Notes: a model not told the origin generated them from the sequence alone. A stretch of 64,000 bases of DNA from Eledone cirrhosa (GCA_964016885.1 OZ024743.1:18662001-18726000); one strand, 5' to 3'; shown: positions 1 to 62,152, counted from the stretch's first letter. Made by a program: numbers and translations.

Positions 1-3000
1 TGCTAGCATTGATATGCATCTGTGTGTATATAAATGTTACTAGATATAAATTCCTTATAATTATCTCCAATTCATTTGTCGAGCAATATTTGGCCATGAC
101 TGCTACTATGGTAGTAAGCTGGCCGCTGTCTTAATAACCACTCGCTTTCCACTGATTGACCTCGATGTCACATGATTGATTCTTTTTGAATTTGCCGCGG
201 GCGTAGAGACAGTGATTTACACAATGGCTTGGAATCCAGTCCACGCATAGCTATTTCCATTCCACTGAATTATTTTTGTAATAAGTTTCCAGTGTCCTCG
301 CTATGCCTGGAGACCTATACGGAAAAATACTTTCCTGATGACGGAATGATTTTCTTTATGTTTCTTCGGAAAATATATTTACTCCATTCCAGAAACTAAT
401 TAGTTGGAAGTGATTTTTTAGGAAGTAAGTTAATTTTATAATTTTCTTATTTTACGACTCTCATATTATTGTTCTGCAACCCCATGCATTGAACCACATT
501 GTTAATAAGACAAACCCTATATATTTGCTAGCATTGATATGCATCTGTGTGTATATAAATGTTACTAGATATAAATTCCTTATAATTATCTCCAATTCAT
601 TTGTCGAGCAATATTTGGCCATGACTGCTTATATGGTAGTAAGCTGGCCGCTGTCTTAATAACCACTCGCTTTCCACTGATTCACCTCGATGTCACGTGA
701 TTGATTCTTTTTCTGAATTTGCCGCGGACGTAGAGGCACTGATTTTCTCAATGGCTTGGAATCCAGTTCAGGCATCGCTATTTCCATTCCACTGAATTAT
801 TTTTTTAATAAGTTTCCAGTGTCCTCGCTATGCCTTGAGACCTATACGGAAAAAGACTTTCCTGATGACGGAATGATTTTCGATATGTTTCTTCGGAAAA
901 TATATTTACTCCATTCCAGAAACTAATTAGTTGGAAGTGATTTTTTAGTAAGTAAGTTAATTTTATAATTTTCTTATTTTACGTCTCTCATATTATTGTT
1001 CTGCAACCCCATGCATTGAACCACGTTGTTAATAAGACAAAACCTATGTATTTGCTAGCATTGATATGCATCTGTGTGTATATAAATGTTACTAGATATA
1101 AATTCCTTATAATTATCTCCAATTCATTTGTCGAGCAATATTTGGCCATGACTGCTACTATGGTAGTAAGCTGGCCGCTGTCTTAATAACCACTCGCTTT
1201 CCACTGATTGAACTCGATATCACGTGATTGATTCTTTTTGAATTTGCCGCGGACGTAGAGGCAGTGATTTACACAATGGCTTGGAATCCAGTCCACGCAT
1301 AGCTATTTCCATTCCACTGAATTATTTTTGTAATAAGTTTCCAGTGTCCTCGCTATGCCTGGAGACCTATACGGAAAAATACTTTCCTGATGACGGAATG
1401 ATTTTCTTTATGTTTCTTCGGAAAATATATTTACTCCATTCCAGAAACTAATTAGTTGGAAGTGATTTTTTAGGAAGTAAGTTAATTTTATAATTTTCTT
1501 ATTTTACGACTCTCATATTATTGTTCTGCAACCCCATGCATTGAACCACATTGTTAATAAGACAAACCCTATATATTTGCTAGCATTGATATGCATCTGT
1601 GTGTATATAAATGTTACTAGATATAAATTCCTTATAATTATCTCCAATTCATTTGTCGAGCAATATTTGGCCATGACTGCTACTATGGTAGTAAGCTGGC
1701 CGCTGTCTTAATAACCACTCGCTTTCCACTGATTGACCTCGATGTCACGTGATTGATTGTTTTTGAATTTGCCGCGGATGTAGAGGCAGTGATTTTATCA
1801 ATGGCTTGGAATCCAGTCCACGCATCGCTATTTCCATTCCACTGAATTATTTTTTTAATAAGTTTCCAGTGTCCTCGCTATGCCTGGAGACCTATACGGG
1901 AAAAGACTTTCCTGATGACGGAAAGATTTTCTATATGTTTCTTCGGAAAATATATTTACTCCAATCCAGAAACTAATTAGTTGGAAGTGATTTTTCAGTA
2001 AGTAAGTTAATTTTATAATTTTCTTATTTTACGTCTCTCATATTATTGTTCTGCAACCCCATGCATTGAACCACATTGTTAATAAGTCAAAACCTATATA
2101 TTTGCTAGCATTGATATGCATGTGTGTGTATATAAATGTTACTAGATATAAATTCCTTATAATTATCTCCAATTCATTTGTCGAGCAATATTTGGCCATG
2201 ACTGCTACTATGGTAGTAAGCTGGCCGCTGTCTTAATAACCACTCGCTTTCCACTGATTCACCTCGATGTCACGTGATTGATTCTTTTTGAATTTGCTCC
2301 GGACGTAGAGGCAGTGATTTTCTCAATGGCTTGGAATCCAGTCCACGCATCGCTATTTCCATTCCACTGAATTATTTTTTTAATAAGTTTCCAGTGTCCT
2401 CGCTATGCCTGGAGACCTATACGGAAAAATACTTTCCTGATGACGGAATGATTTTCTTTGTTTCTTCGGAAAATATATTTACTCCATTCCAGAAACTAAT
2501 TAGTTGGAAGTGATTTTTTAGGAAGTAAGTTAATTTTATAATTTTCTTATTTTACGTCTGTCATATTATTGTTCTGCAACCCCATGCATTGAACCACATT
2601 GTTAATAAGACAAAACCTATATATTTGCTAGCATTGATATGCATCTGTGTGTAAATAAATGTTACTAGATATAAATTCCTTATAATTATCTCCAATTCAT
2701 TTCTCGAGCAATATTTGGCCATGACTGCTACTATGGTAGTAAGCTGGCCGCTGTCTTAATAACTACTCGCTTTCCACTTATTGACCTCGATGTCACGTGA
2801 TTGATTGTTTTTGAATTTGCCGCGGATGTAGAGGCAGTGATTTTCTCAATGGCTTGGAATCCAGTCCACGCATCGCTATTTCCATTCCACTGAATTATTT
2901 TTTTAATAAGTTTCCAGTGTCCTCGCTATGCCTGGATACCTATACGTAAAAAGTCTTTCCTGATGACGGAATTATTTTCGATATGTTTCTTCTGAAAATA

Positions 3001-57000: not shown

Positions 57001-60000
57001 AAAATATATTTACTCCATTCCAGAAACTGATTAGTTGGAAGTGATTTTTTAGTAAGTAAGTTAATTTTATAATTTTCTTATTTTACGTCTTTCATATTAT
57101 TGTTGTGCAACCCCATGCATTGAACCACATTGTTAATATGACAAAACCCATATATTTGCTAGCATTGATATTCAGCTGTGTGTATATAAATGTTACTAGA
57201 TATAAATTCCTTATAATTATCTCCAATTCATTTGTCGAGCAATATTTGGCCATAACTGCTACTATGGTAGTAAGCTGGCCGCTGTCTTAATAACCACTCG
57301 CTTTCCACTGATTGACCTCGATGTCACGTGATTGATTCTTTTTGAATTTGCTCCGGACGTAGAGGCAGTGATTTTCTCAATGGCTTGGAATCCAGTCCAC
57401 GCATCGCTATTTCCATTCCACTGAATTATTTTTTTAATAGGTTTCCAGTGTCCTCGCCATGCCTGGAGACATATACGGAAAAAGAATTTCCTTCGGACGG
57501 AAAGATTTTCTATATGTTTCTTCGGAAAATATATTTAATCCATTCCAGAAACTAATTAGTTGGAAATGATTTTTTAGTAAGTAAGTTAATTTTATAATTT
57601 TCTTATTTTACGTCTTTCATATTATTGTTCTGCAACCCCATGCATTGAACCACATTGTTAATAAAACAAAACTTATATATTTGCTAGCATTGATATGCAT
57701 CTGTGTGTATATAAATGTTACTAGATATAAATTCCTTATAATTATCTCCAATTCATTTGTCGAGCAATATTTGGCCATGACTGCTACTATGGTAGTAAGC
57801 TGGCCGCTGTCTTAATAACCACTCGCTTTCCACTGATTGACCTCGATGTAACGTGATTGATTGTTTTTAAATTTGCCGCGGACGTAGAGGCAGTGATTTT
57901 CTCAATGGCTTGGAATCCAGTCCACGCATCGCTATTTCCATTCCACTGAATTATTTTTTTAATAAGTTCCCAGTGTCCTCGCTATGCCTGGCGACCTATA
58001 CGTAAAAAGACTTTCCTGATGACGGAATGATTTTCGATATGTTTCTTCGGAAAATATATTTACTCCATTCCAGAAACTAATTAGTTGGAAGTGATTTTTT
58101 AGTAAGTAAGTTAATTTTATAATTTTCTTATCTTACGTCTCTCATATTATTGTTCTGCAACCCCATGCATTGAACCACATTGTTAATAAGACAAAACCTA
58201 TATATTTGCTAGCATTGATATGCATGTGTGTGTATATAAATGTTACTAGATATAAATTCCTTATAATTATCTCCAATTCATTTGTCGAGCAATATTTGGC
58301 TATGACTGCTACTATGGTAGTAAGCTGGCCGCTGTCTTAATAACCACTCGCTTTCCACTGATTGACCTCGATGTCACGTGATTGATTCTTTTTGAATTTG
58401 CTCCGGACGTAGAGGCAGTGATTTTCTCAATGGCTTGGAATCCAGTCCACGCATCGCTATTTCCATTCCACTGAATTATTTTTTAATATGTTTCCAGTGT
58501 CCTTGCTATGCCTGGAGACCTATACGGGAAAAGAGTTTACTGATGACGGAAAGATTTTCTATATGTTTCTTCGGAAAATATATTTACTCCATTCCAGAAA
58601 CTAATTAGTTGGAAATGATTTTTAGTAAGTAAGTTAATTTTATAATTTTCTTATTTTACGTCTTTCATATTATTGTTCTGCAACCCCATGCATTGAACCA
58701 CATTGTTAATAAGAGAAAACTTATATATTTGCTAGCATTGATATGCATGTGTGTATATAAATGTCACTAGATATAAATTCCTTATAATTATCTCCAATTC
58801 ATTTGTCGAGCAATATTTGGCCATGACTGCTAGTATGGTAGTAAGCTGGCCGCTGTCTTAATAACCACTCGCTTTCCACTGATTGACCTCGATGTCACGT
58901 GATTGATTCTTTTTGAATTTGCCGCGGACGTAGAAGCAGTGATTTTCTCAATGGCTTGGAATCCAGTCCACGCATCGCTATTTCCATTCCACTGTATTAT
59001 TTTTTTTAGTAAGTTTCCAGTGTCCTCGCTATGCCTGGAGACCTATACGGAAAAATACTTTCCTGATAACGGAATGATTTTCGATATGTTTCTTCGGAAA
59101 ATATATTTACTCCATTCCAGAAACTAATTAGTTGGAAGTGATTTTTTAGTAAGTAAGTTAATTTTATAATTTTCTTATCTTACTTCTCTCATATTATTGT
59201 TCTGCAACCCCATGCATTGAGCCACATTGTTAATAAGACAAAACCTATATATTTGCTAGCATTGATATGCATCTGTGTGTATATAAATGTTACCAGATAT
59301 AAATTCCTTATAATTATCTCCAATTCATTTGTCGAGCAATATTTGGCCATGACTGCTACTATGGTAGTAAGCTGGCCGCTGTCTTAATAACCACTCGCTT
59401 TCCACCGATTGACCTCGATGTCATGTGATTGATTCTTTTTGAATTTGCTCCGGACGTAGAGGCAGTGATTTTCTCAATGGCTTGGAATCCAGTCCACGCA
59501 TCGCTATTTCCATTCCGCTGAATTATTTTTTGAATAAGTTTCCAGTGTCCTCGCTATACCTGGAGACCTATACGGGAAAATACTTTCCTGATGACGGAAA
59601 GATTTTCCGTATGTTTCTTCGGAAATTATATTTACTCCATTCCAGAATCTAATTAGTTGGAAGTGATTTCTTAGTAAGTAAGTTAATTTTATAATTTTCT
59701 TATTTTACGTCTTTCATATTATTGGTCTGCAACCCCATGCATTGAACCACATTGTTAATAAGACAAAACTTATATATTTGCTAGCATTGATATGCATCTG
59801 TGTGTATATAAATGTCACTAGATATAAATTCCTTATAATTATCTCCAATTCATTTGTCGAGCAATATTTGGCCATGACTGCTACTATGGTAGTAAGCTGG
59901 CCGCTGTCTTAATAACCACTCGCTTTCCACTGATTGACCTCGATGTCACGTGATTGATTCTTTTTGAATTTGCCGCGGACGTAGAGGCAGTGATTTTCTC

Positions 60001-60235
60001 AATGGCTTGGAATCCTGTCCACGCATCGCTATTTCCATTCCACTGAATTATTTTTTGTAATATGTTTCCAGTGTTCTCGCTATGCCTGGAGACCTATACG
60101 GAAAAAGACTTTCCTGATGACGGAATGATTTTCGATATGTTTCTTCGGAAAATATATTTACTCCATTCCAGAACCTAATTAGTTGGAAGTGATTTTTTCG
60201 TAAGTAAGTTAATTTTATAATATCCTTATTTTACG

Positions 60236-60241
<6 letters not shown>
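1..60241 (+). repeat. Tandem satellite array, ~524.5 bp monomer (521-527 bp length variants), ~115 copies, truncated by the left window edge
   Basis: The landmark tgctagcattgatatgca occurs at 1, 526 and 1053 and recurs head-to-tail to about 59.8 kb. Spacings in the ORF track are multiples of ~524 (523, 1048, 1573, 2099). Length classes come from small indels: ttctttgtttc (-2), tttttctgaa (+2), and gatatcttcgaaaaa or tttagtaagttaa (-4). Confidence 0.99.
323..418 (+). ncRNA. Putative type I hammerhead ribozyme (first copy; the motif recurs once per monomer and is degenerate in some)
   Basis: Stem I ACUUUC 329-334 / GGAAGU 406-411, extended by AAAAAU 323-328 / AUUUUU 413-418. Core CUGAUGA 335-341. 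Stem II GGAAUG 343-348 / CAUUCC 385-390. GAAA 392-395. Stem III ACU-AAUU-AGU 395-404. Cleavage triplet GUU 403-405. Atypical C342/A391 opposition at the base of stem II. Folded by eye only. Confidence 0.68.

Positions 60242-60319
<78 letters not shown>
60242..60319. repeat. (AT)39 microsatellite terminating the array
   Basis: Perfect AT run directly after the monomer sequence ...gtctctc. Confidence 0.98.
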
Positions 60320-60325
<6 letters not shown>

Positions 60326-60431
60326 CCTAAAATAAGAAAATTATAAAATTAACTTACTTACTAAAAAGTCACTCCCAACTAATTAGTTTCTGGAATGGAG
60401 TAAATATATTTCCCGAAGAAGATATAGAGAA
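60320..60431 (-). repeat. Inverted partial monomer (3' half of the hammerhead motif plus downstream AT-rich segment)
   Basis: The reverse complement reads ttctctatatcttcttcgggaaatatatttactccattccagaaactaattagttgggagtgactttttagtaagtaagttaattttataattttcttattttaggtctctc, which matches monomer positions ~350-462. Confidence 0.96.
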
Positions 60432-60435
60432 TATA

Positions 60436-61100
60436 TATAATTTTCTTAATTTACGTATCTCATATTATTGTTCTGCAACCCCATGCATTAAACCACAATG
60501 TTACTAAGACAAAACCTATATATTTGCTAGCATCGATATGCATCTGTATGTATATATATGTTACTAGATATTAATTCTTTCTAATTATCTCTAAATTATT
60601 TGTCGAGCAATATTGGCCATGACTGCTGCTATGGTAGTAGGCAGGCCGCTGTCTTATTAGCAAACCACTTTCCACTGATTGACCTCGATGTCACGTGATT
60701 GATTCTTTTTGAATTTTCCACAGACGCAGAGGCAGTGATTTTCTCAATGGCTAGGAATTCAGTCCACTCTTTGCTATTTCCTATCCACTCAATTATTTTT
60801 TAATAAGTTTCCAGAGTCCTCGCTTTGCCTGGAAACTTAGATGAGAATAGACTTCCCTGATGACGGAATGTTTCTCCATATCTTCTTCGGAAAATATATT
60901 TACTCCATTCCAGAAACTAATTAGTTGGAAGTGATATTTTAGTAAGTAAGTTAATTTTATAATTTTCTTATTTTACGCCTCTCATATTATTGTTCTGCAA
61001 CCCCATGCATTAAACCAGAATGTTACTAAGACAAAATCTATATATTTGCTAGCATCGATATGCATCTGTATGTATATATATGTTACTATATATTAATTCT

Positions 61101-61103
<3 letters not shown>
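60436..61103 (+). repeat. Diverged ~1.27-monomer copy of the satellite unit with ~145 bp terminal redundancy
   Basis: Collinear with the monomer, with about 50 differences per unit by manual count (~10%). Segments ~60436-60581 and ~60958-61103 share private variants (cattaaacc, ttactaag, catcgat, ctgtatg). Confidence 0.95.
60844..60940 (+). ncRNA. Putative type I hammerhead ribozyme in the diverged flanking copy
   Basis: Stem I ACUUCC 60851-60856 / GGAAGU 60927-60932 is fully Watson-Crick. CUGAUGA 60857-60863. Stem II GGAAUG 60865-60870 / CAUUCC 60906-60911. GAAA 60913-60916. GUU 60924-60926. Confidence 0.7.

Positions 61104-61157
<54 letters not shown>
61104..61157. repeat. (TA)27 microsatellite
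   Basis: Perfect TA run at the point where the diverged monomer stops. Confidence 0.97.
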
Positions 61158-61162
<5 letters not shown>

Positions 61163-61434
61163 TAGGTTATGCATGAAATGCTTAGGATTATCCTGAATGC
61201 AGTAATGGTTAATTACTACACTATATAGAGTCGACGGACGTTGAGGTGTTACTCAATGAGTTATAAAAGAACAGTTAAAGAAACTCGATTTCCGATTCCT
61301 CTGTATTCCGGAGTGTAGTAACTACTAAAGGGACATTTTAAAGCACTCGGAATAAACTACCTTTTTATGATGTCTACCTCTTTTATTAAACATTCTTTAT
61401 AAATATATATATCTATATATCAATATATATTTAT

Positions 61435-61436
<2 letters not shown>

Positions 61437-61496
<60 letters not shown>
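61437..61496. repeat. (AT)30 microsatellite with a degenerate TA-rich left flank
   Basis: Direct reading of the sequence. Confidence 0.97.
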
Positions 61497-61499
<3 letters not shown>

Positions 61500-62152
61500 A
61501 TACATTAACAGAGAAAGCGTCAAGCAATACTAGTACCGACTTCCGTCTCACCCAATAAACATTATGATATGCTAATATAATAGTATAATCCCAATTATAA
61601 ACGTATAATGGCAATTATACTTTTGGGGTGCTAACTATACGTATTTTGCGGTTAGCCAGTTGTATTATTTCATATGCGACAAAATTAAAGACATCCCTCT
61701 TTCCAAACGATCGTTTCATCATAAGTTTTCTACAAGTTGGGAAAATAATGTGTAGGTTATGTAGAAGCTTACACATAGTCCATAGGAATATATGCAGGTG
61801 GGCAATTATAAATCATCAGTAGATGCCCAACAATATCGATATAAAAAAAAACCTACCGATATTAACATTCAGCGATGGTTCCCGTCAATGTTCGAGTTAC
61901 CGCCAAATTTGAAATTCCAGCAGCCTCACAAAGAGAAATCTCACACCGTCACAAAACAGGAAGCGGAAGTCATCGAAAAACATAAAAAGTTAAAATAATA
62001 TGCACGCAGGTCAATTAATTATGTCAAGAATTGTAACCATGCGCTAAGAACTCAATTTTATATTATACAAATTAAATACATCCCTCTTTCCTAACGAGGT
62101 CTTTTTCTCCACTATTGGCCCTGTAGTTGATGAAAATGGCATATATCTATAC

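Follow-up and report, generated by a model that had tools for sequence, protein, structure and literature searches.

We analysed a stretch of 64,000 nucleotides of the Eledone cirrhosa genome (hereafter the window) and conclude that the 525-bp unit repeated in it is probably a non-coding mobile element with a predicted self-cleaving hammerhead ribozyme, likely copied into (TA)n by a Penelope-type enzyme, and that the array found in the window grew later. A sequence-only reading of the same stretch had proposed a ribozyme-bearing repeat of about 525 bp, possibly from an undescribed family. This proposal is supported by the evidence for the fold and by a family-wide comparison, with the amendment that the family is a dispersed mobile element and not primarily a satellite.

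The right-hand part of a head-to-tail array, comprising 115 units of about 525 bp, occupies positions 1-60245 (plus strand) of the window. The full array (G000:C4:18609402-18722245) measures 112,844 bp, or about 215 units, and begins about 52.6 kb upstream of the window. Array units of the window are 97.5% alike to their majority sequence; Tandem Repeats Finder (period limit 500) misses the array. One unit spans 60-584 (plus strand), counted from just after a fixed 3' end at 59, and is non-coding, the longest stop-free stretch in six frames of two units being 76 aa. A tail of 118 nt (467-584, plus strand) lies between two fixed 3' ends at unit positions 466 and 59, which we infer to be reverse-transcriptase start sites, and contains two conserved hairpins (about 473-492 and 537-552), one of them with compensatory changes. 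Directly after the end of the array at unit 466 follows an (AT)39 target microsatellite (60242-60319) and then a separate, complete and two-armed insertion of a sister subfamily. Its inverted arm (60316-60434, minus strand) runs from unit 466 to 349, and its direct arm (60436-61105, plus strand), 88% alike, covers unit 437 to 525, 1-525 and 1-59, has its own hammerhead at about 60835-60946 and ends in (TA)n. Three unlabelled contig sets from one sample, which do not constitute independent support, contain over 59300-61600 nothing beyond loose ends that run into TA repeats at each fixed end. The left end of the array (L096:7320-7406) is an inverted arm (365 to 281) without the expected 59 end or TA flank and was probably trimmed after insertion. 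Unit lengths of 521-527 recur in blocks along 1-60245, pointing to higher-order duplication.

Re-reading the ribozyme letter by letter, we found the parts of a type I hammerhead at 323-418 in the order and places that had been claimed: CUGANGA, GAAA and UH follow one another and the open end is helix I. The 5' strand of helix I (329-334, plus strand) pairs with 406-411 and is 5 bp long on both strands in subfamilies B-D. The core box CUGAUGA (335-341, plus strand) follows, its N7 being C in some subfamilies. Within 342-391 (plus strand), a C342·A391 opposition adjoins helix II (343-348/385-390), whose strands are separated, again as claimed, by a 36-nt loop (349-384); the region also contains a pyrimidine-rich internal loop and a distal hairpin (about 357-378) with a UUCG loop in the window's subfamily. 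The GAAA box (392-395) and the palindromic helix III region (394-405, a 12-nt palindrome) together span 392-405 (plus strand), with helix III itself having 3 bp (395-397/402-404, plus strand) and the cut predicted after U405. By hammerhead numbering, the 3' strand of helix I (406-411, plus strand) would form the 5' end of the cleaved monomer. The usual G10.1-C11.1 pair had been described as displaced by a C/A opposition. The opposition is indeed present at the core, but the pair is not lost: G343-C390 is kept in 31/31 family members, one step out and separated from the core by the 1x1 C342·A391 opposition. A canonical consensus with a Watson-Crick G10.1-C11.1 pair directly on the core does not describe the unit's hammerhead. 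Natural exceptions to this pair exist, including a U10.1·U11.1 mismatch, and U·U is the best-tolerated mismatch reported at this place in the passages of PMC3088659 that were compared. The C·A mismatch adjoining the core may slow cleavage.

The unit's hammerhead is not filed in any Rfam hammerhead family. At the gathering threshold, Rfam gave 0 matches across the window, and the suggested check against Rfam hammerhead models came out negative, with a search of 1-1600 at E<=10 returning three matches, all chance snoRNA. The folding energy of the ribozyme region is unremarkable (z -0.52). Given a silent Rfam and an ordinary folding energy, the motif was tested by other means. A descriptor with helices of 6/6/3 bp is passed by 78/115 units of the window and matched by 0 of 20,000 dinucleotide-shuffled versions of the unit (both strands), while a loose 4/4/2 descriptor yielded 2 matches in 20,000 such shuffles (both strands). 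Searching the 3.0-Gb genome with a pattern that covers the ribozyme gave 9,875 matches, and the reversed control gave 0; the C and A of the mismatch are fixed in this pattern, so their constancy among its matches is not independent. The ribozyme's shape escapes Rfam although its pattern matches nearly 10,000 times in this genome.

An exact 20-mer has 642 matches in the genome, and the units extracted from fetched loci sort into nine subfamilies that are 70-90% alike. For structure comparison, 31 family members were hand-picked to cover all nine. Over these members 97.8% of cells pair, and 37 cells changed on both sides against a shuffled mean of 12.5, a value reached by 0/500 shuffles with a control that is inflated by the relatedness of the sequences. 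The three helices that had been proposed are supported to different degrees by this comparison. Helix II covaries, with compensatory changes at 3/6 pairs (pairs 2, 4 and 5) and with pair 2 taking all four Watson-Crick forms (G-C 11, U-A 9, A-U 7 and C-G 4; n=31). Helix I shows one-sided changes and a matched indel, being either 6 bp or 5 bp long with both strands shortened together, whereas helix III never varies and is therefore uninformative by itself. Over nine subfamily units, 13/13 core and mismatch columns are invariant compared with 225/518 other columns, a comparison that is partly circular because the search anchors contained some core columns. N7, the sole free core position, is the core position that varies. 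We are almost certain that the ribozyme fold is real and under selection, and consider it likely that the predicted hammerhead self-cleaves.

A predicted 5-bp pseudoknot between 322-326 and 350-354 (both plus strand) would take the place of the usual loop contact. Its cells pair in 96.8% of cases, and one pair changes from G-C to A-U in 4/31 members, representing one event on the tree; 322-326 can alternatively pair with a U-run after helix I. Among 19 long-loop type I hammerhead representatives of the genome, 9 have a pseudoknot-like Watson-Crick match of at least 5 bp that links the strand before helix I to the one after helix II, with differing letters and the same geometry. The cross-family rate of such matches is 0.108 and 0/5,000 permutations reach 9/19; recurrence is 7/17 after subtraction of the unit's family and one self-complementary case. 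This survey covered 283 sequences (1.3 Mb of fetched loci), and because its windows were fixed after the first cases had been seen and nine near-duplicate rows were dropped, the recurrence is support and not proof. A 1x1 mismatch on the core is present in 20/35 hammerhead representatives of the scanned loci, 15 of them being U·U.

Modeling of alternative folds assigned little weight to the competing hairpin UUCC387-390/GGAA406-409 which the sequence-only reading had named as a potential refutation, with a probability of 0.03 in this copy and of at least 0.3 in only 4/31 members. The main predicted competitor instead pairs core positions 335-339 with 399-403 (probability 0.63). This off-state of core and palindrome has a probability of at least 0.5 in only 20/31 members, and members with C at N7 are without it. 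When folding is calculated without pseudoknots, the active monomer is 1.3-7.7 kcal/mol less stable than the optimum, and for 30/31 members the double hammerhead has a lower score than two optimal monomers. These models suggest a ribozyme that is off as a monomer and on as a tandem.

To characterize insertions, we used a sample of 66 loci with 108 arms, taken from the first 100 of the 642 exact matches in genome order together with six earlier loci; loci were selected for the 40-59 motif, which creates a bias toward seeing the 59 end. The 3' end is visible in 98 arms and lies at unit 59 in 57 and at 462-467 in 32 of them (89/98 together), with TA repeats following 87 of these 89 arms. Inversion was observed in 39/66 loci. 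Both ends are visible in 35 inverted loci, of which 31 pair 59 with 466 and only 1 pairs 59 with 59. Dispersed copies are 5'-truncated with scattered 5' ends and set in (TA)n, and the two ends used by subfamily B, which is 71% alike, are the equivalent ones and likewise 118 nt apart. Two fixed ends, (TA)n and inverted 5'-truncated copies are the Penelope footprint. The parts of the Penelope literature compared here describe a tail delimited by two internal start sites, together with AT-rich cutting (PMC11167929), and truncated, inverted and tandem insertions in (TA)n (PMC8557442). What would be expected of a non-autonomous Penelope-like element, namely 5' truncation, partial tandems, an inverted copy, two 3' ends with a tail and a microsatellite target, was found throughout, and mobilisation of the unit by a Penelope-type enzyme is very likely. 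One insertion (L073) starts with three short repeats of unit 392-418 with TA runs between them, as if the enzyme had restarted several times.

Long frames combining reverse transcriptase (RT) and GIY-YIG, as expected of an autonomous element, are present in the same genome, which contains 10,596 GIY-YIG candidates, 150 of which were scored. In one locus (L217), the 59 end of the unit is joined, without a TA repeat, to the middle of the RT frame in a 5'-truncated RT/GIY-YIG body, where a CX4CX2C linker follows the RT frame and precedes GIY-YIG. A Neptune-like label for this body would rest on the linker motif as described in the passages of PMC8557442 compared. The locus (L217:1775-4420; G000:C1, about 47.02 Mb) is a three-part chimera of a Penelope body with its own hammerhead, 1.2 units and an inverted piece of a third hammerhead family, a single case that is best read as a template switch within one insertion event. 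No further fusions to Penelope bodies directly after the end motifs were found in the 46 loci read (16/46 and 30/175 pattern matches). Likewise, no autonomous partner with a matching pLTR was found by profile in 41 loci, drawn from the 150 scored of 10,596 GIY-YIG candidates. The L156 Penelope family was considered as a parent based on likeness of the 3' region and was rejected, with z 1.0-3.0 over nine units and no nhmmer match beating reversed controls. A young RT and GIY-YIG family (L153, L154, L158, L161, L162 and L164) has frames of up to 938 aa and terminates in TA repeats roughly 200 bp beyond the stop; the descriptor finds no hammerhead there.

With regard to the template, a linear cleaved monomer would limit arms to 61 or 179 nt, and 81/108 arms cross the cut site instead. 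Complete arms longer than one unit number 35, and four are longer than two units. No pile-up of 5' ends was seen at 400-412 (3 compared with 3.4 expected; 108 arms), and 5' ends are mildly enriched at 392-425 (19 compared with 8.9), a value reached by 27/300 scan nulls. Within insertions (80 loci), units differ by 1.2% on the same arm (56 pairs) and 1.5% on opposite arms (44 pairs) compared with 2.8% between loci, and 59% of derived variants are in common within an insertion against 11% between insertions. A circle explains this likeness simply, while uncut multimers from homogeneous sources can explain it too. Of about 515 sites, 15 differ between the units in L011 and 23 between those in L053, so that more than one template is needed there and one circle is insufficient. 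Overall, we lean towards a circular template with moderate confidence. An unlikely alternative is a linear multimeric transcript of the same element copied by the same enzyme, in which the ribozyme cuts occasionally, perhaps to release the RNA when it lies within a host read-through transcript, and a circle is unneeded. The heterogeneous units of L011 and L053 and the mild excess of 5' ends around the cut site fit such a template, but there is no wall of 5' ends at 406 (2/108 at 404-407 compared with 1.0 expected). Young source dimers would likewise give units sharing variants, and Anolis Poseidon in vitro mainly uses RNA that has not been processed, as stated in the parts of PMC11167929 compared; arms beyond one unit are nevertheless common, and the hazard of stopping varies little around the unit, as it would on a circle.

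Insertions of several units allow mutations passed on through transposition to be told apart from later ones, and the ribozyme is spared only in the first. Variants found in every unit of an insertion had been present in the template (inherited), and those in one unit are mostly later (private). For subfamily A, inherited variants were found at 1 of 2,083 site-by-locus chances in the ribozyme and pseudoknot compared with 135 of 13,413 elsewhere, whereas private variants amount to about 1.4% in ribozyme and other positions alike. Distal loop II, which lies between protected strands, is unspared (2.2% inherited, subfamily A). For subfamily B (31 loci), the numbers were 0 of 1,446 ribozyme chances and 152 of 9,611 elsewhere; six of these loci had been found by the ribozyme pattern and were excluded from the joint test. 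In both subfamilies together, 1 inherited variant was seen on ribozyme positions and 36.4 were expected, the site-by-locus counts being non-independent owing to lineage sharing. When distinct variants are counted, the inherited/private numbers are 1/38 in the ribozyme and 82/208 elsewhere (Fisher p 1.3e-4). Restricted to the 11 core positions, 1 was seen against 7.3 expected by site and locus (distinct 1/5, p 1), and for the pseudoknot alone 0 against 6.4 (distinct 0/10, p 0.067); neither of these small counts reaches significance. The same separation of inherited and later variants can be applied to any genome with such families.

In the array, by comparison, divergence is 2.6% in the core, 2.2% in the helices and 2.2% in the rest (208 units aligned over more than 480 columns), and intact cores are present in 173/208 array units compared with 103/114 dispersed pieces. 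The ribozyme is thus selected in transposing copies and not in the window's array, which suggests that it is needed for jumping; a unit expanded as a satellite loses its ribozyme. One variant is present in 165/208 array units and in 0/95 dispersed pieces. We considered the array as a master copy and rejected this, since its common variants are absent from dispersed copies. It is very probable that the array represents a neutral expansion at the DNA level. In 17/208 array units, three core letters are replaced by one variant block. A second array of at least 50 kb (G000:C9:18.41-18.46 Mb; L238-L252) belongs to a sister subfamily, 85% alike, and contains many damaged ribozymes. The existence of this array next to the 113 kb array described here could be taken to mean that the family is host-kept satellite DNA first, with a function at the array level and dispersed copies as spill-over. 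We judge this highly improbable and already largely refuted: common array variants are missing from dispersed copies, array ribozymes decay at the background rate with the C9 array decayed too, and dispersed copies carry retrotransposition ends. Confinement to long arrays and DNA recombination, the mark of a classical satellite, is true of the window's array only, the family being mostly dispersed.

Selection is significant for the whole fold and not for the core alone, and therefore may act on the fold as a protein-binding site. This would agree with a hammerhead that is retained because it serves the Penelope protein in binding or folding and that is catalytically dead, or nearly so, through the C·A mismatch. 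Most arms reading through an intact site would also fit, as would the many Penelope-type hammerheads with low or no activity in the passages of PMC4209133 and bioRxiv 10.64898/2026.07.22.740005 compared. The latter includes 8/9 Xenopus retrozyme dimers without cleavage in vitro. Speaking against our preferred reading, insertion by Anolis Poseidon proceeds in vitro without cleavage of the ribozyme (PMC11167929), and in the parts of PMC11167929 and PMC8557442 compared, a Penelope review allows ribozymes as passengers and the purified Penelope enzyme needs no cleavage in vitro. We nevertheless consider a dead ribozyme improbable, given that the 13 core and mismatch columns are invariant over the nine units (with the partial circularity mentioned above), that it is the one free core position, N7, which varies, that the palindrome needed for the double hammerhead is retained, and that the enzyme would start at sites 61 and 179 nt downstream of the fold.

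Our preferred reading of a self-cleaving element mobilised by a Penelope-type enzyme would involve the following steps. A tandem copy would be transcribed, and neighbouring ribozymes would form a double hammerhead by pairing through the palindrome 394-405, with the pseudoknot as a brace. This is predicted to excise 525-nt monomers, with the core of a lone monomer tending to pair with the palindrome and thus being off, and the monomers would be ligated into circles. The enzyme would then nick (TA)n and start cDNA at 59 on one strand and at 466 on the other, a mechanism proposed from the footprint that the insertions show. Circling the template past the cut site, it would stop at random, and the two arms would be joined back to back, along the lines of the twin-priming idea. 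One insertion on C4 expanded to about 215 units, as shown by common variants missing from dispersed copies and by ribozyme decay at the background rate. More tentatively, and with some doubt, we suggest that a hammerhead class of animal retroelements with a 1x1 mismatch at the core, a long helix II and a Watson-Crick pseudoknot, which silences itself in the monomer and works when dimeric, drives a circular RNA copied by a Penelope enzyme from both fixed starts simultaneously, and that the mutation pattern gives direct genomic proof of a need for cleavage in Penelope-type mobilisation in vivo. The defined pair of start sites is offered for in vitro work.

Judging by features testable in DNA, the unit appears to work like, and would belong to, the animal non-LTR retrozymes. 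In the passages compared on metazoan non-LTR retrozymes (PMC7229834; bioRxiv 10.64898/2026.07.22.740005; newt satellite 2 class), the shared features are a non-coding AT-rich tandem unit, one type I hammerhead per unit in consecutive units, dimers to long arrays, dispersed copies and coexisting Penelope-like elements, the latter having been proposed as carriers of these retrozymes (PMC7229834; bioRxiv 10.64898/2026.07.22.740005). The unit length of 525 bp and the array of about 215 units are within the ranges of Li et al. (51-972 bp, up to 300 units) as given there. The ribozymes described in these passages are canonical, with a helix I of 6 bp, a helix II of 4 bp and a loop 1-loop 2 contact, whereas the unit's ribozyme has C·A on the core, a helix II that is long and in two parts, and a predicted pseudoknot. 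Fixed paired 3' ends and (TA)n targets are found for the unit and go undescribed in the retrozyme passages compared. Expression and circles, shown there for metazoan retrozymes, are proposed for the present family.

The minimal hammerheads in the pLTRs of Penelope elements (PMC4209133; Cervera and de la Pena 2014), as far as the passages compared describe them, share with the unit an extra nucleotide after A9, a long helix II, a short helix I and a dimer-type palindromic helix III. The unit differs in having a second extra nucleotide before G12 (the 1x1 mismatch), in a predicted tertiary brace where minimal Penelope hammerheads are said to lack tertiary contacts (PMC6155905), and in having neither an ORF nor, among the loci searched, a parent element. 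In the accounts compared of EN+ Penelope-like elements, comprising Poseidon of Anolis (PMC11167929), Neptune/Naiad and the non-autonomous Chlamys, e.g. MRC1 (PMC8557442), the features in common are 5' truncation, partial tandems, an inverted copy, a tail between two 3' ends, insertion into (TA)n and head-to-tail non-autonomous copies. Their tail is 30-40 nt long compared with 118 nt in the unit, and the near-strict pairing of a long and a short end per insertion is particular to the unit. Further, the unit's ribozyme was selected during spread, whereas Poseidon needed no cleavage in vitro and Naiads are without canonical hammerheads. The Watson-Crick pseudoknot between helix I and II arms is shared with the pseudoknotted hammerheads of Perreault et al. 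2011 (PMC3088659); in the passages compared, these make up about 40% of the paper's set and include all three types. The unit differs from them in being an animal retroelement, in its palindromic helix III and in its C·A mismatch, and the length analyses of that paper omitted highly repetitive type I motifs. In the passages of open-licence literature compared, with supplements outside the comparison, we found neither the shape of the unit's ribozyme in an animal retroelement nor paired fixed ends for retrozymes nor a test for ribozyme selection by inherited and private variants.

Three minor observations concern the window and its units. A second, unrelated hammerhead element lies between TA repeats at 61497-62141 (minus strand; core near 61819) and has a 387-nt partial repeat, U·U on the core and a loop II of 81 nt; a pseudoknot of 6 bp is predicted for it at the position known from the 525-bp family. 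At 160-180 of each unit, a CACGTG box with flanking CCAAT-like words is present, and 7/9 subfamily units keep the box; this stretch is a possible internal promoter. Lastly, repeated GTAAGT words at 419-431 of each unit, just after the cut site, are conserved and, as GUAAGU repeats, might be splice-donor-like.
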